From a virus (taxonomy: Duplodnaviria > Caudoviricetes), in IMG/VR virus record IMGVR_UViG_3300031555_003590, positions 64,001 through 128,000 of that record: a DNA stretch of 64,000 nucleotides; one strand, written 5' to 3'. This document shows positions 22,584 through 58,880 of the stretch, piece after piece (the stretch's first letter is position 1; each line of letters opens with the position of its first letter). A model generated the notes under the pieces. It was not told where the DNA came from. It saw nothing but the letters and a program-made list of their open reading frames with translations, and did no database searches. The translations under genes were made by a program, and so were the position numbers.

Positions 22584-23765
22584 ATGAATCTTACAAATGA
22601 CCAATATATAGCCTTATCTAAACTCGAAAAATGGTATCGTAAATATAACCATCAGATCATAGAAATTTCTGCAATTATTGGTACTGGAGTATGGGACGTC
22701 ATTCAAAAGTTTATTGATGATGAAGAATTAGATCCTAGAGAAGTTATGTATTTAGATTTTAATCAAAGACATATATTAGAGTTAGCATATAAAAGATACC
22801 ATGCATACTATATCAATGGTATAATATATAATTATAATAGAATAGTAGATTTTAATACATTGCCAGTAATCAATTCACGTTCTACTATGATGGAGTATGA
22901 ATGGAAAAAATCAGTAAAAAAGAAAATTGATAAAAGATATAAGTTAATGGTAGTATTTGATTCAGTATTATTAAATGAATCAACATTAAAGGATCTTAGT
23001 TCATTTGGGTTGCCAATGATACTAATAAGAGATCCGATGCTGCTACCAGCACCGGACTCTTATGTATATTTACGTGATTCAAATATTATATTAAGAGAAC
23101 CTCATCCAAATTATATTAAAAATCCAATTGTTTATTTTGCTCATAAATTGATTATTGGAGATAAATTAATTCCTGGTAACTATGATAATGTTAGTATTGT
23201 TCAACGAAAACAAATGAATCTTTATAATTTAAAATCTTCTGATATGAATATTACTATGACTCAGGAATTAAGAAATGAAATTAACAAAATATATCGTGAT
23301 CGAATCATGAAACGAAAAGATATGATTAATGTTGTTAATGAACGATTAATTGTTATGAAAGATATGTATGCACATAAATTAGTTAATCAAGATGAAAAGA
23401 AAATAAAAATATATTTACAGAAAGGTGTTATTGGTCATATTACTAAAATTAATCATCATGTAGAATCAACCAAATATGTTCCAATAGAATTTAGACCTGA
23501 ATTCTATCATGAATCATTTGATGATTTGGTTCTTGATCGACATTACCTAAATGGAATTGAATATCCTTCAAAACAAATTATTCCAGATGAGTTTGTTCAA
23601 ATGGAATATGCATATGCATTAACTCCATCTTTAGCAAGACTTAGTCATTGGGATAAAGTTACAGTAATATTAGATCCTAATATTGAATTAGATTATGAAT
23701 TACAACAGTTAATGATATATACTGCAATTACTAGAGCAAAACAATCATTAACAATTGTAATTTAG
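22584..23765 (+). CDS. Dda/RecD-like SF1 helicase homologue with degenerate ATPase motifs
   Basis: LTNDQ, DPMLLP, C-terminal YAYALT...YTAITRAK; Walker A reads IGTGVW, Walker B reads VVFDS. Confidence 0.75.
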   Translation: MNLTNDQYIALSKLEKWYRKYNHQIIEISAIIGTGVWDVIQKFIDDEELDPREVMYLDFNQRHILELAYKRYHAYYINGIIYNYNRIVDFNTLPVINSRSTMMEYEWKKSVKKKIDKRYKLMVVFDSVLLNESTLKDLSSFGLPMILIRDPMLLPAPDSYVYLRDSNIILREPHPNYIKNPIVYFAHKLIIGDKLIPGNYDNVSIVQRKQMNLYNLKSSDMNITMTQELRNEINKIYRDRIMKRKDMINVVNERLIVMKDMYAHKLVNQDEKKIKIYLQKGVIGHITKINHHVESTKYVPIEFRPEFYHESFDDLVLDRHYLNGIEYPSKQIIPDEFVQMEYAYALTPSLARLSHWDKVTVILDPNIELDYELQQLMIYTAITRAKQSLTIVI

Positions 23766-44312: not shown

Positions 44313-47300
44313 ATGCGAATAAAATTTAGTAGATTAAATTTAGAATCAGAATGTATGTATGATTGTATTAATGGAAAGGGATTCATTATTAGTGATGTAC
44401 CATTTTCTGATATAGATAAGTCAGTTAGGAATATGGATGGTCCTCGTAGCCCTAGGTTTGGTACGACTTATGGCGATGTTAATGAGTTCATGGATCGTTA
44501 TCATTGTAAATGTGGACGATATGTAGGAGCAACATTTGAAGGTGAATTATGTCCAGAATGTGGTACTAAAATTGAATATACTGATGTTGATATTATGTAT
44601 ACTGGATGGCTTAACTTTTATCCATATAAAATCATATCACCACTTTTCTTTCATCGATTACAATCAGCATTATCAAAGAAAATATTAGAAAATATTATAT
44701 CAAATGAAAATATAATTACATCATCAGGCATCATTAGAAAACATAATGATGCATTAGAAGTAAAGAAAAGTTTATTACAATATCACAATATAGGGTAAAT
44801 ATTGTTGCTCTTTCTCTCATAATTGCGGGAAACTCTCGTTAAGTCTAAGGTACTGCAGCTACTGGTGACAGATAGTGTAGCAGATAGTATAACAGCTATC
44901 GGATAGTAAAAACCCTTAGAATAGAGAAAATCATACGCAGCTAAGATAATAGTTATATATTATTTATATAAGATATTAGAATCTGGTATATTCTAATATC
45001 AGAAAGGAGGTAATGATATATGGGTAAGAAACATAGATACAAGATATCAGAAAATTATGATTTAGAACAAGCTGTATTGAATATGAATTGGAAATCAGTT
45101 TTAATACATGGAGAAATGACAAGATATGAAGTTAGTGATTGCGGCTTGGTAAAAAGTTTAAAACACAATATTATCCTTGCACCAGGAATGGATACTTATG
45201 GATATCCTCAAGTTGGAATATATTTGAATGATGTTAGATTTAATCGAAAAGTTCATAGACTAGTTGCTGAAGCATTTATTCCCAATCCTGAAAATAAACC
45301 TGAAATAAATCATAAAGATGGTAATAAAATAAATAATGATGTTAAAAATCTTGAATGGTCTACAACTAAAGAAAATATTGACCATGCAATTAGAACAGGT
45401 TTACGTAAACATATTGATGCATTAAGTGGAGCATATCATAAATATGAAATTGATATAATACATGAAATATGTAAATTATTAGAAGAAGGTAAATTACAAC
45501 AAAAGGAAATTGCTGAAATATTAAATGTCCCTAAGGGAATAATTTCTGAAATTAAATGTAAACGTATATGGCTTAGTGTATCTTGTCAATATAATATTGA
45601 TCTTCCTAATACTAGAGGCGAAACTCATCATAATGCAATATATACTGAAGATCAAATTTGCAAAGTGTGTCAAATGTTACAAGATCGAAAATATAGTTAT
45701 AAAGAAATAATGAAAATTACAGGAGTTTCTAAATCTTTAATTGCTAATATAAAGAATAAGCATAGTTGGAAATGTATTTCAGATTTATATGATATTCCTC
45801 CTTCTAATTATATTGGTGAAAATCATTATAAATCAAAATATATGGAAGATCAAATTCATTATGTATGTAAATTATTAGAAGAAGGAAAATATACTCATTC
45901 TAAGATTTCTGAAATTACTGGAGTGAGTAAAAAGGTTATTTCAAATATAAAATATAAACATTCTTGGACTCATATATCTAAATTGTATAATATATGATAT
46001 ACCAGATCATTTATTATAACATAACTATTATCAAGTTCAACGACTATCGAAAACAGTAATGTGAGTAGAGTAGTACATCAGCTAAAGATGTAAACGAAAC
46101 GAGAGACACTACTAATTAGTAGTGAAGATATAGTCTAGTATCCTATAGAAATATAGGGAAGTTCATAAGAGAACTGCACTAGCTTGCGACTAGTGTGAAT
46201 ATACGTACAACAGTTTTATGAAAATTTTGAAGAAATAATGTTGTATTATAAAAGTAAACGTAAACAAAAAGCTGATTTAATTGATTCATTAATTAGAGAT
46301 AAAGATTTAGTTTGGACATCTAAAATTCCAGTATATTCAACTGTATTACGTCCTCAAGGTGTAACTGCTGAATCATATTATTTTACTACAGCAGATAAGC
46401 ATATTAATCCTTTAACAAATATATGTATTAATTTAAAGAAAGCTTCTCCAATTGAAGTACCATTATATTTATATCAAGCTCAAATGAGAGTAAATGAATT
46501 ATGGGGTATTAATTTTGTATTAATTGACGGAAAACATGGATGGTGTAGGGGAAATGTGCTTGGAGGCGAGTTGATAATATAAAATGGCTCGCTATAAACT
46601 AGGTTAATTGCGGGAACATCTTGTTATGTCAATACTACCAAGTTATACTAGTGATAGTATAATGGTCTAGAGTAATTAACTAGAGTATGGTAACAATGTA
46701 TTGAATAGAGAAAATCCGCAGCTAATCAACTAGTGTTAACTAGTTGCAGGTTCAACGACTATCTCATAGGACTAGTAATACTAGTCAACAGGAGTAGGGC
46801 CCAATTGCATATGGGGTGAGTGAAAATCTCTTAAATCGAAATGCCTAGCTCTGTTCATTTAATAATGAGCTAAAGATATAGTCTCGGCATCCTATAAGAA
46901 TAGGAGAAGTTCATATTCAATTCATATGAATATAAATGAATTGATTGTAGAGAACTGCATAGTAGTTGCGATACTATGTGAAGATTACGTTAACTACAGT
47001 GGCAGGAGCGTTATAGTTCTTGATCCAACATTAAAAGTAGATGAGGTAGATATACCATATAAAGCATTTATTGAACAATTCAAAGGTAGAATTGTTAGAC
47101 GCATTATAATGGATAAAGGTTGGAGTATTACTAAAGCATATAATTTCCTAGCTAGTAAATTTATGTATGATGATTATGTATATTCAATTATGTGTGATAT
47201 AGTAAAAGATGAAAAACCTTCACTTATAATCAATCGTAATCCAACTATAACATTTGGATCCATACTATTAATGAAAATACGTAAAGTAAAGCCTGATGCA

Positions 47301-52868: not shown

Positions 52869-52968
52869 TATTTATTACCTCCTATATATTATATATTTAT
52901 AATATATAATTTAAAATTTGAACCCGAGATTAATATATGAATAATATGATATAAGGAGGAATGTTAAT

Positions 52969-54783
52969 ATGAATTTAAATCAATCTTCATTAATATTATT
53001 TGAATCAGAACGAAAGAAATATGAATATATACCACCAGAAGGAAGTAATTCATTTTATACTATCGGTGATGGAGAAATAAATCTAGAATGTATTAGAGAT
53101 AATTCTGATAATTATAGATTTGATCTATATACTCAAAATGGACATATTTATACTGGTCCTAGTAATTTTACAATATCAGGAGATATAATTAATAATGAAT
53201 TTCCATATAATGATTTTACTATTATTCCAAATACTATTGTAAGTGTTAATCATACTCTTACTATTAGTAAAGGTACATTAGCTGTACATGGTAAATTAGA
53301 ATTAATGTCAGGATCTCAGTTAATTGTTAGAGATAAAGGAAATATTATTTTTTATCCTGATTCTGAATTTATAATTCATAATGAAACAGATATTTCAGTT
53401 GCTCCAGAATCCAATATCGACATTTATGGTAATATTGATGTTCATTTATCTGAAGTAGATACAATTTTAAATGTGTATGGTATTACAATTGATTCTGCTG
53501 CAGTAATGAATGTAACAGGTATCAATTTATACGATAGGCCATATAGCATGACTGATTATGATTTTGATTTGCGTAATACTATTATAAATGTTCATACTCA
53601 AGGTGAAACTAACTATGAAGATGGTCGTTTAGGATATACATGGACAGGTGGTTCTCCTAATGAATCATCTCAAATTATTAGAATGATTTTATTATGGGGA
53701 CAAGCAATATTAGGAGATTTCAAATTCTCAGTATTAGGAACTCCAGAAAATAGTATTCCTAATCTACAAATGGTATCTGAATTATTAATTAAAAAAGATA
53801 CTACTTTATATATTACTGAAAATTATAAAGGTAGTAGATATATTAGACCTGACCTGTATTTAGGATTGGTAATTGGAAATAATAAAACTCCAGCTACTTG
53901 TATTATAGAAGGTAATATTATTGTAGATGGAATTAATTCTACAATAACAATTGATAGAGGAGCTCGTTTGTATATTAGACCAACGGGCACTGTAAAATTG
54001 ATAAATAATGCTCGTATTAAATCTACATATAATGATGAAAACACTCCAGTATTATTTATTGATGGAACTTTAATTATTGATGATATTAGTCAAATTAGTA
54101 TGTTTTATCCAGGTAATATTGTATTTGGTGAAACTGGTAAAGTGGTTGTATTAAATCCTGATACTGGTGAAAAAAGAATATTATGGTCTACACCTTCAGG
54201 TATTGAATCTACTGATTTATATAGATTATTTAAAGATAGAATTGATCATATAGAATATCATATTCAAAATAATACTGGTATTGGTATTGATAAATATTTT
54301 GAATTTTATGCAAGAGATTTCACTAAATGGTATGGTGGTAGACGTATTGAGAAAGCAATCCATGATGGTATATTAGTATGGCATGATGGAGGATTTATTG
54401 AAGTATATAATGATATTACTCCGTGGGTAAATGAAAATTGTACATTATTTGAAGCATCTCGATTTTTTAAATCATTTGCTTCTTATGATGAAGAACGTTT
54501 ACAAGAAGTGGTTGATAGATTAAAATATACTGGATGTGGTAATATACTATTTAGATTTGTTAACTCTGGTAAAATTGGTGAAGTAATAATGACATTAGAT
54601 GGCACTAAAATGGAATCTGTACTAGCTAATGTTACTAAAGGAACTTATATTCTCAATACTGATAATGATGGAACTTTATTTATGAGAAATAAATTATCAA
54701 CTACTGATGTAGATAATATTGTAAATGATAATGCTAAACAAATTGAAATTAAAAATAAACAAGTTGAATTTACTTTACCATAA
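52969..54783 (+). CDS. Beta-strand-rich putative virion protein
   Basis: 604 aa with repeated G-x-L-x-I/V patterns suggesting a beta-helix. Confidence 0.6.
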   Translation: MNLNQSSLILFESERKKYEYIPPEGSNSFYTIGDGEINLECIRDNSDNYRFDLYTQNGHIYTGPSNFTISGDIINNEFPYNDFTIIPNTIVSVNHTLTISKGTLAVHGKLELMSGSQLIVRDKGNIIFYPDSEFIIHNETDISVAPESNIDIYGNIDVHLSEVDTILNVYGITIDSAAVMNVTGINLYDRPYSMTDYDFDLRNTIINVHTQGETNYEDGRLGYTWTGGSPNESSQIIRMILLWGQAILGDFKFSVLGTPENSIPNLQMVSELLIKKDTTLYITENYKGSRYIRPDLYLGLVIGNNKTPATCIIEGNIIVDGINSTITIDRGARLYIRPTGTVKLINNARIKSTYNDENTPVLFIDGTLIIDDISQISMFYPGNIVFGETGKVVVLNPDTGEKRILWSTPSGIESTDLYRLFKDRIDHIEYHIQNNTGIGIDKYFEFYARDFTKWYGGRRIEKAIHDGILVWHDGGFIEVYNDITPWVNENCTLFEASRFFKSFASYDEERLQEVVDRLKYTGCGNILFRFVNSGKIGEVIMTLDGTKMESVLANVTKGTYILNTDNDGTLFMRNKLSTTDVDNIVNDNAKQIEIKNKQVEFTLP

Positions 54784-54918
54784 TAATATAGGAGGGATAT
54801 AATATCCCTCCTATATTTATCGTATATTTTTATAAAATATTTATATATTATTTATTTGAATAAAAGATTGAAATATATCTGATATTCAAAAAATTGATTA
54901 TAAACGGAGGAATTACAA

Positions 54919-55101
54919 ATGTTGCTAACTATGATTAAAATGATTTTCAAAAAGAATTATGCAAAAGAAATTTATGAAAACAGTAAAAATCCTGTTATTA
55001 CTAATGAAGATGGTCTTCGTGTAATCCAGATTTCTTCTGGTAATGGAAAAGTTGTTGATGGCAGGCTCATGATTGGTGGTAGCTCTATTTTCTATCATTA
55101 A
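54919..55101 (+). CDS. Small hypothetical protein
   Basis: GGAGG RBS; promoter motif 54842-54851. Confidence 0.65.
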   Translation: MLLTMIKMIFKKNYAKEIYENSKNPVITNEDGLRVIQISSGNGKVVDGRLMIGGSSIFYH

Positions 55102-55132: not shown

Positions 55133-55639
55133 ATGAATACTATCAAATTTAATGCAAGTATGTTTATCGTTCCTAATAGCCTCAGCAAGGTTAAGAATTT
55201 CTTCAATCCTGAGAAATATAAAAAGATAATGACTGAAATCTGCGAACTCAATGGAACAACCTTTGATCCTAAAAATGATTTAATCGTTCAAACTTGGTAT
55301 AATTCTAAACAGCTTGGTTCTGAAAACCTTGCTCGTCACGGCGCATACAAAAGAACAGAAGATGGTAATACATATATCATTGATTTCTATGCTCAAGAAT
55401 ATTTTCCTGTGAAGATTTTCAAGGATCACAAGGAAGGTGATGTCATCAATTTTAAAATTCCTTGTAAACTTACTAAAAGATATACTTGTGATGATGACAA
55501 TGAAGCCTTTAGTACAGAAGAAACAATTGAAGCTATTGCTGATATGCAGTTGGAATTGAACCAATTGGATTATCGGTATCGTAATCATGGTACTTTTGAA
55601 GAAGTGCTTGATAAACTGATTAGTAGATACCATGATTAA
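55133..55639 (+). CDS. Hypothetical protein
   Basis: AAGGAG RBS, 168 aa. Confidence 0.8.
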   Translation: MNTIKFNASMFIVPNSLSKVKNFFNPEKYKKIMTEICELNGTTFDPKNDLIVQTWYNSKQLGSENLARHGAYKRTEDGNTYIIDFYAQEYFPVKIFKDHKEGDVINFKIPCKLTKRYTCDDDNEAFSTEETIEAIADMQLELNQLDYRYRNHGTFEEVLDKLISRYHD

Positions 55640-55660: not shown

Positions 55661-56275
55661 ATGACTATCACTACTAGCACTAATGAAGTTCTCTTCAATA
55701 GCACCTTATATGAAATGCCTGATTACTGGCCATTCAAAGTGATAAATGCTACATTCGGTGATAAGAACATGTATCTACAGGCAAATGTTCCTGGTATCTA
55801 CGAGGCTATTAACACTCTGAGTGATCGAGAAAAAGAAATCATTCTCCTTCGCTTTAAAGATGAAATGACTTTAAAGGATATAGGTAACCGATTCGGTATT
55901 TCTCAGGAGCGTAGTCGGCAAATTATTGCCAAGGCTTTAAGGAAACTTCGTCATCCGAGCCGATTTAAGTTTATGCTCGCAACAAGCAGAGCAGATTATG
56001 ATGAGATTAAAGAAAGGCTTAAATTTGCAGAAGCGACTATAGCCAAACTACAAGCGGATGAGCCAACAAAAAATGTACTTGAACTTAGTATCGAAGATGT
56101 TGCATTTAGCTATAGAGCTTTCCATTGTTTACATCAAGCCAATATCAATAATATTGCTGATCTCAGTACTATGACAGTAAAAGATCTACTGAAGATTCAT
56201 AATCTTGGAACAACCACTGCTAGGGAAATCGTTTATAAACTTAAATCTTTTGGGATTAATATACCTGAAGAATAA
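55661..56275 (+). CDS. Sigma70 region 4 - RNAP alpha-CTD fusion protein
   Basis: LSDREKEIILLRF..MTLKDIG.RFGISQERSRQIIAKALRKLRHPSR (sigma region 4), then LSIEDVAFSYRAFHCL.QANI..IADL....DLLKIHNLG...EI..KL..FG (alpha-CTD). Confidence 0.9.
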   Translation: MTITTSTNEVLFNSTLYEMPDYWPFKVINATFGDKNMYLQANVPGIYEAINTLSDREKEIILLRFKDEMTLKDIGNRFGISQERSRQIIAKALRKLRHPSRFKFMLATSRADYDEIKERLKFAEATIAKLQADEPTKNVLELSIEDVAFSYRAFHCLHQANINNIADLSTMTVKDLLKIHNLGTTTAREIVYKLKSFGINIPEE

Positions 56276-56310
56276 AAAGAAAGGGAGCAAATTAAAGCTC
56301 CCTTTCTTTT
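56275..56310. terminator. Bidirectional intrinsic terminator
   Basis: AAAAGAAAGGGAGC/GCTCCCTTTCTTTT. Confidence 0.85.
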
Positions 56311-58880
56311 TATTCATATATTACATTTTGTAATTTAGATCTAGGTACATCATCAGACATACAAATACAATCCATTGGAATATTTATCATCTGAGATAAA
56401 TTATGAGAAATAATAAATGCTTGTTCAGCTTCTAATGTATTCATTTGAGTATATAACATCTTTAAGAATGCTGATCTTCTATCGGAATCTAAGCCTGCAT
56501 CCAATTCATCGACTAGCAATATATTGTATGTTCCGGAAGCACGATTTGCCAAAGCAAATGATAGAGCCATAGTTATCAAAGCAACTTCAGACTGACTTGC
56601 ATATTTAACATCAGGAATTTTAGTTCCATTCTTAATATATGGAACTTCAAATGTATCCTGAGTAACTTTAAACTTTGCAAGTTGTAATTCACCATCATAT
56701 ATTAATCCAAGTAATTCATTAGATAATTTCTGAATTCTACCTAAGTATCGTTTCATATAAATAACCGGAATACCTTTCTTAGTAGATACAGAATCTTGAA
56801 TTAAATTTAAATCAGTATTTTTCTTTGATAACTCTTTACCTTCTTTAACTAGTCTATTATACTCATTTAATTTATTTTCTTTTTCTTTTAAATCTTCTCT
56901 ATACATATTAATCTGACCAGTTACTTGTCTAAGTCTAAACTCCAATTCTCTACGTTCATGTTCAGCTGATTCTAAGGGTTCTAATAATTTAGTAGTAGAT
57001 TCAATGGTAGATTCAAGTATAGATTTAAATTTTTTACCATCATTATATTTAGTAACTAATCCAATTTGTCTATCTATAGTATCTAAATTAGATTGTATGG
57101 TAATTATATTGGATTGAAGAGTTTCAATATTAGATTTATAGAAATCAATACTTTCTCTACATTGTTTAATTTCACTAATATGAGAATCAATACCAGAACT
57201 TTTATAAACAGATAACTGTTGTTCATATTGTTTTAACTTTTCTACATTCTCTACATAGATTTCATGTTCTCTAATTATAGTTAAATATTCTTGAAATCCA
57301 CTAATATCAAATAATGGTAATTTATTACTTAATCTTCTATAAATTTCACTTTCTTCTAATCCACTCTTTAACATTGCAGATAAATTATTAGTAGCTCTAA
57401 TCTCATCCATTCCATTTAAAATATTATCAACATTATTAGAAATTACTTTAATATATCTCAAAGTTTCATCATCTAGTGATTCTTCATCCAATTTATCTTT
57501 GATAGTAGTAATAGTATCAGCTAGTTTATAATAAGGACATTCTATATATTGAGTATCACAATTAGGAGTAATAATATCTTCATCAGCAAATACTTGATTT
57601 AGTAGAGTTCTAATATCGCTTTCATTTATTCTACTCATATTCTTTTTAAGTTGAGTAGTTACAAATTTATCTACAGACTTATTATCTCTTTTTAATTGTA
57701 AATATACTTCTAAAGGTTTATTACCTAAAGTATACAACATCTGTCCAATTTGATTGAATGATGTTAATTTATTTACTACTTGATGAATATCATTAGATGT
57801 AGATCCTAAAGATCTAAATTCTTTAATAGTTTTATTAACAGAATTTAATGAATTTCTTAAACTTTCAATAGCATTGGTTAGCGATTGTAAATCGTTATTA
57901 GAAGTAACTCGTTTAATAAGAATATCTAATCTCTCAATATTTCTTAAATTATTATCAATGGATATTCTATAAGAATTAATTTTGGCTTGAGTATTAATTT
58001 TATCTTCTGATAATGATGATCTTTTCTTCATTAAATTATCAATAGTAGTATCCTGTAACCCTTCACTAATAATATTATTCTCAGTACGTTCTAATTCAGA
58101 TAATGATACTTTAGCTTCTTGATATTTTCTACGTAAGTCATCAATATTATTAGTACTCATAAGAGCTTGTAGTTTACTAATAGAAGCAATTACACTATCT
58201 CTATCTTTTTCTAATTTTTTAATAGATTTATTTAATTGATTAATTTTTTCTTCTTCAACTATAGGATCTGAAATATGGCAATTGTATAGATTATTGTTAT
58301 TAGTAGCTAACATAGCTTTTACTATTCTAATATCTTCATTTATTTTCTTATATATCTTAAGATACATATCAATTTCTTCAATTAATTTACCAATGTATTC
58401 TTTTCTTTTAGCAGGTGCTAGTGTAATAAATGAATTAACATTAGTACCTAATCTAATTAACCTCATCATTTCTTCAGTTAACCCAAAATGTAATTCTACT
58501 AATTGAAGAAATGATCTTACATTTCCATTTTCATTTAATTCTTCACTATTTTTAATAAAGTAACTTTTTACTGTGTGACTATCTTTAGTTGCTTTATAAT
58601 AATGCTTGATAATATATTCATCTTCATTATCTTTATAATGAATTTCTTTATAACCATCATAACCTTTTCTAATATAAGGTAATGAAGATCTTTCATCTAA
58701 TGATGTTACATATGCAAATGGGGTTAACGAAGACATTAGTACTGTTTTTGCACTTCCATTTTTACCAGATATACTTACTATTTTATTCTTAGAATTTTCA
58801 AATGAGATTTCTATTTTTTCTTTATTTTGACCTACATATAGACCAGCAACATTTTCTAATTTGATATATGTTATTTTCAT
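56310..58880 (-). CDS. SbcC/Rad50-like ABC ATPase
   Basis: Walker A GKNGSAKT, long coiled coil, signature ASQSE, Walker B LLVDE, D-loop GLD, ISH. Confidence 0.9.
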   Translation of the reverse strand: MKITYIKLENVAGLYVGQNKEKIEISFENSKNKIVSISGKNGSAKTVLMSSLTPFAYVTSLDERSSLPYIRKGYDGYKEIHYKDNEDEYIIKHYYKATKDSHTVKSYFIKNSEELNENGNVRSFLQLVELHFGLTEEMMRLIRLGTNVNSFITLAPAKRKEYIGKLIEEIDMYLKIYKKINEDIRIVKAMLATNNNNLYNCHISDPIVEEEKINQLNKSIKKLEKDRDSVIASISKLQALMSTNNIDDLRRKYQEAKVSLSELERTENNIISEGLQDTTIDNLMKKRSSLSEDKINTQAKINSYRISIDNNLRNIERLDILIKRVTSNNDLQSLTNAIESLRNSLNSVNKTIKEFRSLGSTSNDIHQVVNKLTSFNQIGQMLYTLGNKPLEVYLQLKRDNKSVDKFVTTQLKKNMSRINESDIRTLLNQVFADEDIITPNCDTQYIECPYYKLADTITTIKDKLDEESLDDETLRYIKVISNNVDNILNGMDEIRATNNLSAMLKSGLEESEIYRRLSNKLPLFDISGFQEYLTIIREHEIYVENVEKLKQYEQQLSVYKSSGIDSHISEIKQCRESIDFYKSNIETLQSNIITIQSNLDTIDRQIGLVTKYNDGKKFKSILESTIESTTKLLEPLESAEHERRELEFRLRQVTGQINMYREDLKEKENKLNEYNRLVKEGKELSKKNTDLNLIQDSVSTKKGIPVIYMKRYLGRIQKLSNELLGLIYDGELQLAKFKVTQDTFEVPYIKNGTKIPDVKYASQSEVALITMALSFALANRASGTYNILLVDELDAGLDSDRRSAFLKMLYTQMNTLEAEQAFIISHNLSQMINIPMDCICMSDDVPRSKLQNVIYE

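Follow-up and report, generated by a model that had tools for sequence, protein, structure and literature searches.

The DNA analyzed here (hereafter, the window) spans 64,000 nucleotides, namely, positions 64001–128000 of the 292,119-bp IMG/VR virus record IMGVR_UViG_3300031555_003590, and carries on its plus strand (55661–56275) a gene for a protein of 204 amino acids (aa) in which region 4 of a sigma-70 factor (sigma-4) is joined to the C-terminal domain of the RNA polymerase (RNAP) alpha subunit (alpha-CTD). The gene starts with ATG, with GGAGG 9 nt upstream, and its product is referred to below as the fusion protein. Sigma-4 is of the primary-sigma type and includes subregions 4.1 and 4.2 with five helices (55787–55975, plus strand, residues 43–105); it is followed by a one-helix linker that bears a hydrophobic stripe of heptad spacing (55988–56056, residues 110–132) and by an alpha-CTD with the double helix-hairpin-helix, or (HhH)2, fold (56063–56266, residues 135–202), both on the same strand. 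The Pfam family Sigma70_r4 matched residues 49–98 over its whole profile (positions 1–50, E-value = 5.3e-20), the stretch N-terminal to region 4 being 48 residues long, and RNA_pol_A_CTD matched residues 135–195 (profile positions 6–66 of 67, E-value = 2e-17); both E-values were below 1e-16 and the matches are far beyond chance. Among the sigma families, only Sigma70_r4 and r4_2 were found by the Pfam scan at E ≤ 1, with neither sigma region 2 (PF04542) nor region 3, and the alpha N-terminal assembly domain (RNA_pol_L / RNA_pol_A_bac) was not found by the Pfam scan. Compared with a functional sigma-70 factor, the fusion protein has the region 4 helix-turn-helix (HTH; PF04545) and lacks region 2, and compared with RpoA, it has the C-terminal (HhH)2 domain (PF03118) and lacks the N-terminal domain; it is without any part able to bind core RNAP in the manner of either sigma or alpha.

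The structure of the fusion protein was predicted with AlphaFold2 (AF2) from a family alignment of 136 rows, with a mean predicted local distance difference test score (pLDDT) of 88. Superposition of the modelled alpha-CTD on 1z3e_B, an alpha-CTD from B. subtilis, gave Z = 13.6 and a root-mean-square deviation of 1.3 Å over 67 residues, and the middle domain of the model resembled SigA region 4 chains in the structure comparison. The best PDB sequence matches of the sigma-4 part were S. aureus and B. subtilis SigA, the NCBIfam matches were likewise of the primary-sigma type, and the PHROG matches were families of the category "transcription regulation". For the alpha-CTD part, the best PDB sequence match was the RpoA chain 8i23_A, followed by S. 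aureus (8x6f) and B. subtilis (3gfk, 1z3e) RpoA, and only the last approximately 90 positions of the NCBIfam rpoA models matched the fusion protein (56 bits against a cut-off of 228). The linker was modelled as one helix of 23 residues, approximately 35 Å or roughly one DNA turn in length. Thus, the initial annotation of the locus, which had described a sigma-70 region 4 joined by a short helical linker to an RNAP alpha-CTD in the absence of sigma region 2, is borne out by the Pfam scan and by the AF2 model and its superposition. A prediction of a two-copy complex of the fusion protein with the family alignment scored 0.38, with a mark of 0.42 and a value of 0.35 for one control.

A word-indexed search recovered approximately ten two-domain proteins with 29–63% identity to the fusion protein, and a profile of those proteins run against 1.84 billion representatives yielded 1,843 clusters at E ≤ 1e-30; among the 150 top-ranking of these clusters, almost every one covered the whole profile. 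Both domains were present in 185 of the 192 candidates on hand, and 168 had one of each in the order sigma-4, alpha-CTD. Approximately 85% of these 168 single-copy members were long forms of 300–375 aa, in which the additional 70 N-terminal residues form an XRE/Cro-type HTH (best PDB matches Pli0006 and ICEBs1 ImmR); the fusion protein, which is without this N-terminal HTH, is a short form. According to the family tree, short forms arose at least three times, and the fusion protein is paired with P0002, its sole close relative (63% identity), with a support of 100, on a long branch nested among the long forms. All four elements of the family, namely, a flap-tip-like helix, sigma-4, a helical rod, and alpha-CTD, are found in this order in the fusion protein, which aligns with 136–168 members. 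Its linker belongs to the shortest linker class of the family; in a long form, the last sigma-4 helix continues in the AF2 model as one helix of approximately 54 residues up to the alpha-CTD, and the family linker has Leu or Ile at every seventh residue, a spacing from which a dimer would be predicted. Consequently, the fusion protein is not the single invention of this phage that the initial annotation had taken it for, since it represents one of the short forms within a very large family whose members are mostly non-jumbo.

Members of the family were located in long arrays of small co-oriented open reading frames (ORFs) on contigs of 10–150 kb, with genes for RusA, Lar-type restriction alleviation, AcrVA2-like proteins, methyltransferases, and tyrosine recombinases as neighbors, and this setting is that of a phage or a mobile element. 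The family is mostly non-jumbo and phage-borne and has so far been confined to uncultured phages and mobile DNA. No full-length member was detected by tblastn in 50,697 GenBank phage records (three members used as queries: the fusion protein, a long form, and a short form) or in 72,556 PLSDB plasmids (one long form used as a query); these searches returned single-domain matches alone, which were mostly host contamination. No NCBIfam model spans the fusion, and one member was labelled merely "sigma-70 family RNA polymerase sigma factor". The component domains are well known, and no description of the sigma-4/alpha-CTD architecture was found in the literature searched. A contig scan for the KALRKLRHP pattern with the family alignment was dominated by ordinary RpoD genes. 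A fold search of BFVD gave no match at E ≤ 0.001 and returned just viral proteins with either an alpha-CTD or a sigma-4 as their single domain, besides a few candidates without a name; many uncultured-phage UniProt entries in BFVD were stand-alone alpha-CTD proteins (approximately 130 aa) or stand-alone sigma-4 proteins, with the alpha-CTD-containing protein of Rhodococcus phage Finch as a cultured example. The use of single promoter-reading modules of RNAP thus seems to be common among phages.

It should be noted that some relatives carried the modules in higher numbers. The metagenomic giants P0222, P0223, P0213, and P0259 (the latter 2,194 aa) had one sigma-4 and 3–7 alpha-CTD repeats, and in P0222, a SWI2/SNF2-type helicase (ResIII + Helicase_C) was added at the N-terminus. 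P0121 (L176:2281-5292, Joint Genome Institute (JGI) sample 3300009826; 1,003 aa), which has no flap-tip-like motif, combined three Spo0A C-terminal DNA-binding domains with one sigma-4 and five alpha-CTDs; since these three module types all meet at Spo0A-activated promoters, its composition suggests that it is aimed at sporulation promoters. The additional modules of the relatives (up to seven alpha-CTDs, three Spo0A domains, the XRE HTH) fit a stacking of DNA-binding modules for avidity.

Conservation was counted over 136 aligned members with an overall identity of approximately 30%, the sigma-70 region 4.2 numbers being counted from the C-terminus. The DNA-reading side chains were the best conserved positions of the alignment. 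In the sigma-4 recognition helix, E585 was conserved in 90%, R586 in 98%, R588 in 94%, and Q589 in 98% of the members, and in the basic patch, K593 in 80%, R596 in 86%, K597 in 82%, R599 in 94%, H600 in 86%, and R603 in 80%; the exception to conservation of at least 80% was the position of sigma-70 R584, which was basic in approximately 70%. In the alpha-CTD, R265 was conserved in 99%, N268 in 94%, N294 in 91%, G296 in 100%, and E302 in 92%, with K or R at position 298 in 81% and S or T at position 299 in 91%. Because the conserved residues are solvent-exposed and their known role is DNA contact, this pattern argues that both modules of the family would bind DNA with the holoenzyme's own read-out.

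In the fusion protein itself, the sequence KALRKLRHPSR (residues 91–101) is intact, and the RERIRQ of sigma-70 is changed to QERSRQ (residues 82–87), which corresponds to R584→Q and I587→S. The -35 recognition helix therefore retains E83, R84, R86, and Q87 (E585, R586, R588, and Q589, respectively), with Q82 at the position of R584. Within the 265 determinant of the alpha-CTD, R152 corresponds to R265, N181-L182-G183 to N294-L295-G296, E189 to E302, and T186 to S299, and N268 and K298 are replaced by H155 and T185, respectively (five of the seven kept). The alignment thus reproduced the residue assignments made in the initial annotation, including the retained R265 equivalent and NLG motif and the changed N268 and K298 equivalents. 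Exactly one deviation among the five sigma-4 positions for -35 recognition was found in the fusion protein and in 37 of the 136 members; all seven alpha-CTD determinants were intact in 83 members, and 13 deviated at two or more of them, the fusion protein deviating at two. P0002 has the canonical R584, N268, and K298, and the charges of the fusion protein's modules are typical for the family. Judging by these canonical residues in the closest relative, the typical charges, and the frequency of a single sigma-4 deviation, the fusion protein is probably altered rather than dead; since three contact residues are changed (R584Q, N268H, and K298T), it probably departs from the rest of the family in affinity or specificity.

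Before sigma-4, residues 23–34 of the fusion protein (WPFKVINATFGD; 55727–55762, plus strand) correspond to the family motif [WY]-P-[YF]-N-L-[LVI]-[DE]-x-[IV]-[FLY]-G-E, which was found in 166 of the 168 members approximately 15 residues before sigma-4. Residues 25–32 are helical in the AF2 model, and the helix block had a pLDDT of 92 in the model of the short form, compared with 96 in that of a long form. The motif travels with sigma-4: P0154 (543 aa) contains three tandem units of motif and sigma-4 together with two alpha-CTDs, each sigma-4 having its own copy. It was absent from 107 ordinary RpoD-like sigma factors (best score 0.4 bits). The natural docking partner of sigma-4 is the flap-tip helix of the beta subunit of RNAP, and a profile of the motif searched against E. 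coli RpoB (1,342 residues, filters off) gave a sole match at 900–909 (KLLRAIFGEK, E-value = 0.008), a score reached by 8 of 2,000 RpoB shuffles, and no match in RpoD or RpoA. The conserved hydrophobic positions of the motif align with L901, L902, I905, and F906, after which G907 and E908 come next, the equivalents of the four hydrophobic residues in the fusion protein being V27, I28, T31, and F32, respectively. In the beta flap tip, L901, I905, and F906 insert into hydrophobic pockets (PMC6755090). On the strength of this resemblance, we lean towards regarding the helix as a cis surrogate of the flap-tip helix, with predicted docking in the sigma-4 pocket; if this is correct, sigma-4 of the fusion protein would be kept from competing for the flap of the host.

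The fusion gene is the last of a three-gene unit with hairpin terminators on both sides. The unit is preceded by a promoter core of the early (virion-RNAP) type at 54842–54858 (plus strand), with the core TATATATTAT at 54842–54851, a 6-nt spacing, and G54858 as the likely start. This arrangement of the motif, three ORFs, and a hairpin 3′ of the gene agrees with the initial annotation, which had placed the gene at the end of an operon behind a phage promoter motif. The core before the unit is an exact match to the early promoter consensus of Bacillus phage AR9, AAATATATATTAT-(6N)-G+1, which was determined experimentally for the virion RNAP (PMC5312081). In the 292,119-bp genome, TATATATTAT was found in 50 copies, of which 42 were inside the 10.3% of non-coding DNA, 46 had a purine at +1, and 30 had a gene start on the same strand within 150 nt; in the window, the copies are at 22821, 29664, 33219, 44954, 47415, 49512, 49686, 50161, 51121, 52883, 52899, 54842, and 58917. 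Judged from this genome-wide placement, namely, in non-coding DNA, with a purine start and near gene starts, TATATATTAT behaves as a real promoter element, and by analogy with AR9, we infer an early timing of the fusion gene. Six bases downstream of TATATATTAT, 36 of the 50 copies have A instead of the G of the AR9 consensus, and the early start base of this phage may differ from that of AR9.

In the window, the phage contains RNAP genes of the phiKZ/AR9 type with split beta/beta′ subunits, as well as a family-B-like DNA polymerase and virion proteins, and its genome has two sets of RNAP genes. The fusion gene was the only match to Sigma70_r4 or RNA_pol_A_CTD at the gathering threshold in the 292-kb genome. 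In a jumbo-phage survey, group 1 (phiKZ-model) phages had no sigma factor. AR9 can complete its infection without transcription by host RNAP, as progeny are obtained from rifampin-treated cells, with a small share of host RNAP not fully excluded by the authors (PMC5312081). The AR9 protein gp226, the subunit that gives promoter specificity, has no sigma-4 HTH, and AR9 promoters have no -35 element (PMC5312081, PMC9209446); gp226 retains the first helix of sigma-4 alone, which makes a non-specific "pseudo -35" contact (PMC9209446). By analogy with these features of AR9, the transcription machinery of the phage itself would have no obvious use for sigma-4 or alpha-CTD modules. A flavin-dependent thymidylate synthase of the ThyX type is encoded outside the window (G000:C1:224078-224992, minus strand; Pfam Thy1, 110 bits; 362-aa frame), and ThyA was not found in the phage genome. 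Since ThyX is encoded, the phage, unlike its relatives AR9 and PBS1, is probably without uracil DNA. For the same reason (ThyX encoded, no ThyA), an adaptation of the altered DNA contacts to deoxyuridine-containing DNA, as in AR9, was considered and is disfavoured. An identical fusion protein is present on nine public contigs, at least seven of which, from seven samples, belong to the same strain (nucleotide identity at least 99.8%); the fusion gene had 0 differences among these same-strain contigs, which hence carry no information on the ratio of nonsynonymous to synonymous substitutions (dN/dS).

The reading that accounts best for these data, with a probability of approximately 0.45, is that the fusion protein is a core-independent reader of -35/AT-rich promoter DNA that is made early and competes with the host sigma-A holoenzyme. 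The helix before sigma-4 would copy the beta flap-tip helix and fill the hydrophobic flap pocket of sigma-4 in cis, leaving sigma-4 folded and DNA-competent without the polymerase and not competing for the real flap. Sigma-4 would then read a -35-like hexamer in the major groove, and the alpha-CTD, held approximately one DNA turn away by the 23-residue helix, would read the AT-rich minor groove. In PDB entry 3n97, the alpha-CTD and sigma-4 are adjacent on UP/-35 DNA, and a placement of the alpha-CTD approximately one turn upstream of sigma-4 on a -35-like hexamer is plausible from the model. The targets would be host sigma-A promoters with good -35/UP elements, because the RNAPs of AR9 use no sigma-4, alpha-CTD, or -35 element and those of this phage are assumed to be alike. 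A function directed at the host is also suggested by the phage having its own RNAPs and by the AR9-type early promoter before the gene. The family to which the fusion protein belongs probably acts on host promoter DNA rather than on the polymerase, and early occupancy of the promoters would compete with the host holoenzyme and lower or redirect host transcription. More tentatively, it may be conceived as a phage "promoter mask", a single chain with the three RNAP pieces found together at a promoter's upstream end, namely, a flap-tip helix, sigma-4, and alpha-CTD, that competes in trans for host -35/UP elements. The host-directed holoenzyme mimic proposed in the initial annotation is thus retained as a general idea; of its three mechanisms, promoter occlusion fits best because the DNA-contact residues are conserved in both modules, and host shut-off as the outcome is something we infer.

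Several points weigh against a host-promoter reader. According to E. coli genetics, N268 and K298 matter for UP-element binding, and sigma-70 R584 reads position -31 of the -35 hexamer; all three are lost in the fusion protein. Moreover, sigma-4 and the alpha-CTD in isolation bind DNA weakly. The flap-tip resemblance is a match of 10 residues that was noticed before it was tested, and against the phage's own AT-rich sequence, translated in six frames as a background, the motif score is reached approximately 0.1 times per 1,342 residues. The 22-column motif profile, which is too short to reach significance, gave one match in the whole PDB (E-value = 2.7), to the unrelated HTH protein 3pxp. The possibility that the motif is part of a known XRE-associated domain was also considered and was rejected, as a profile of the N-terminal halves of the long forms did not recover 3pxp. 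The hexamer TTGACA occurs 86 times in the 292-kb genome, compared with 86.8 expected, and its relatives are unremarkable; since the hexamer is neither avoided nor enriched, there is no sign of the phage protecting itself from a -35 binder. AR9, which is without the fusion gene, alters few host transcripts (PMC5312081), so phages of this type are not known to need host shut-off.

Alternatively, the fusion protein could be a decoy whose domains soak up binders of host sigma-4 or alpha-CTD, disarming them or disconnecting host regulation; the candidate targets would be host activators, Spx-type regulators, anti-sigma factors, sensors of defence systems, or proteins with which rival phages target RNAP. 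Sigma-4 and the alpha-CTD are the main contact hubs for regulators, the PDB matches include complexes of this kind (Spx/alpha-CTD 1z3e, ORF67/sigma-4 4g6d, and WhiB/sigma-4 6ono), and the basic patch K593–R603 contacted by activators is 80–94% conserved. The 3–7 alpha-CTD copies of the relatives are sponge-like, and the early-type promoter before the gene and the long small-ORF arrays around the relatives also suit a decoy, since arrays of this kind carry genes for host takeover and counter-defence in other phages. However, a decoy has no need for the DNA-reading residues E585, R586, R588, Q589, N268, N294, K298, S299, and E302, which are nevertheless among the best conserved, whereas the activator surfaces of the alpha-CTD (the 287 determinant and K271, the position of B. 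subtilis K267) are variable in the family. The Spx-contact residues Y263 and K267 (B. subtilis numbering; this species may not be the host) are F154 and H158 in the fusion protein, and for the titration of Spx-type activators proposed in the initial annotation, the data weigh neither way. A decoy is considered unlikely. It is improbable, too, that the protein regulates the phage's own genes, as a repressor or an activator acting on phage promoters or on those few phage genes that host RNAP transcribes, with RNAP-derived domains reused as DNA-binding modules. The XRE/Cro-type HTH added in most members, resembling phage and integrative-element repressors (Pli0006, ICEBs1 ImmR), would be in place in such a regulator, as would the "transcription regulation" PHROG matches of sigma-4, and most members are on contigs of non-jumbo phages, which presumably depend on host RNAP; for AR9, its authors could not rule out that a few phage genes are transcribed by host RNAP (PMC5312081). 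Nevertheless, the promoter motifs of this phage are AR9-like and have no -35 element, the AR9 RNAPs work without sigma-4 or alpha, and -35-like hexamers are not enriched in the phage genome. In addition, a near-invariant recognition helix at approximately 30% identity argues for a common target, the host -35 consensus, rather than for phage operators.

The two remaining explanations place the protein on a polymerase. Docking of its sigma-4 on the host beta flap, with displacement of sigma-A region 4, would either prevent the recognition of -35 elements or recruit the alpha-CTD to RNAP. The hydrophobic core positions of sigma-4 and the helix-5 equivalent are kept, and disturbance of the sigma-4/flap contact by phages is well known (T4 AsiA/MotA, PMC6755090); however, a flap-tip-like helix tethered in cis, approximately 10 residues away from sigma-4, should out-compete the real flap, and a lone sigma-4 would face a full-length sigma factor with many further contacts. 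Such a competitor is quite improbable, and the blocking of the beta flap put forward in the initial annotation is disfavoured on the same grounds, since the conserved cis helix resembling the flap tip should fill the flap pocket of sigma-4. Finally, an accessory factor supplying a phage RNAP with a sigma-4-like or alpha-CTD-like upstream DNA contact would be in line with the two sets of RNAP genes in the genome and with AR9 gp226, whose single sigma-4 helix makes the non-specific "pseudo -35" contact (PMC9209446). AR9 and PBS-type phages, however, were without a homologue by tblastn and transcribe without one, nearly all members belong to phages without RNAP genes nearby, and the protein has no evident element for docking on a phage RNAP; this explanation is very improbable.

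Compared with known systems, the fusion protein has the same folds as the alpha-CTD and sigma-4 of the holoenzyme on UP/-35 DNA (3N97; also 1LB2 and 1KU7), with the DNA-contact residues mostly kept. The acidic patch at alpha 258/259 and sigma R603, which touch on DNA in the holoenzyme, are also kept (E145, D146, and R101, respectively), whereas E261, N268, K298, and R584 are changed. Unlike the holoenzyme, the fusion protein is one polypeptide unlinked to the core, without sigma regions 1–3 and the alpha N-terminal domain, and its domains, joined by a rigid helix (23 residues; approximately 54 in the long form), need not occupy adjacent sites. Engineered chimeras of sigma-4 with the flap-tip helix (3T72, 7KUF, 8CWR, 8CWT, and 8D5V), in which sigma-4 is stable and functional without the core, were among the structural matches of the fusion protein and likewise have sigma-4 tethered to a flap-tip or flap-tip-like helix. 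In these crystallography chimeras, the flap-tip helix is reportedly C-terminal to sigma-4, whereas the helix of the fusion protein is N-terminal to it, has a sequence that is merely similar to that of the flap-tip helix, and would dock only by prediction. T4 AsiA/MotA, phage G1 gp67 (4G6D), and T4 Alt/ModA (ADP-ribosylation of alpha R265) retarget host RNAP via sigma-4 or alpha-CTD, and the outcome is likely the same, namely, an early handicap for -35/UP-dependent host promoters (PMC6755090, PMC3694059, PMC5312081). These proteins bind or modify host subunits, whereas the fusion protein copies subunit domains and would act from the DNA side; it has no sequence or fold similarity to AsiA, MotA, gp67, or Alt. 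A lone sigma-70 region 4 HTH in a small phage protein is likewise found in PHROG 351, 1740, and 36 and in RinA/ArpU-type late activators, but these have neither an alpha-CTD nor a flap-tip-like helix, and their region 4 is of the extracytoplasmic function (ECF) type or divergent and not of the primary-sigma type, in which the KALRKLRHPSR block is intact. AR9 shares the split beta/beta′ genes and the early promoter core with this phage; it has no homologue of the fusion gene, and this phage, unlike AR9, encodes ThyX.

To our knowledge, the known phage tactics against host transcription act on the polymerase, whose subunits are bound, modified, or replaced. A free-standing copy of the polymerase's promoter-reading surface would act on the promoter, preferentially on the strongest -35/UP-dependent host promoters. 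If the "promoter mask" is true, it would be an undescribed DNA-side route to the shut-off or redirection of host transcription, shared by far more than a thousand gut-phage lineages, and the occurrence of a member where the phage has no need of host RNAP would show the host rather than phage genes to be the target. A phage with its own RNAPs and AR9-like promoters is a useful test case, as it removes the ambiguity between phage genes and host targets. The flap-tip look-alike, if confirmed, would be a natural version of the construct engineered to make sigma-4 behave in isolation. Since the sigma-4/alpha-CTD family is large and no name, model, or paper was found for it, a single biochemical study could annotate thousands of genes.

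As for the surroundings of the fusion gene, the first ORF of its unit (54919–55101, plus strand, 60 aa) has its own ribosome-binding site (RBS) and no family match, and the second (55133–55639, plus strand, 168 aa) also has its own RBS and had no Pfam, PHROG, or Atlas match; neither of these two operon partners of the fusion gene gave a Pfam, PHROG, or Atlas lead. The 168-aa ORF is without synteny at the gene of the closest relative. Directly 3′ of the stop codon, a hairpin of 13 bp that has T-runs on either strand (56276–56309, the feature being listed to 56314), recognized by eye as a bidirectional terminator, parts the fusion gene from a convergent SbcC-like gene (56310–58880, minus strand; PHROG 77). 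The locus of P0002 (L084; Logan SRR14307646, a 1,243-bp contig) shares this convergent SbcC-like neighbor and has a different upstream gene. Elsewhere in the window, a 326-aa frame (45020–45997, plus strand) gave a sub-threshold Sigma70_r4 match (E-value = 0.005, 15 bits), which probably reflects an HTH in an endonuclease carried by an intron, or in a similar protein, and not a second sigma-like gene. Directly upstream of the unit, a 604-aa ORF (52969–54783, plus strand) without a PHROG match has its own early promoter motif (52883–52892), and its unit is ended by a hairpin at 54788–54814 (plus strand), which was absent from the consensus terminator scan and was recognized by eye from a 12-bp stem and a 3-nt loop followed by a T-rich run.

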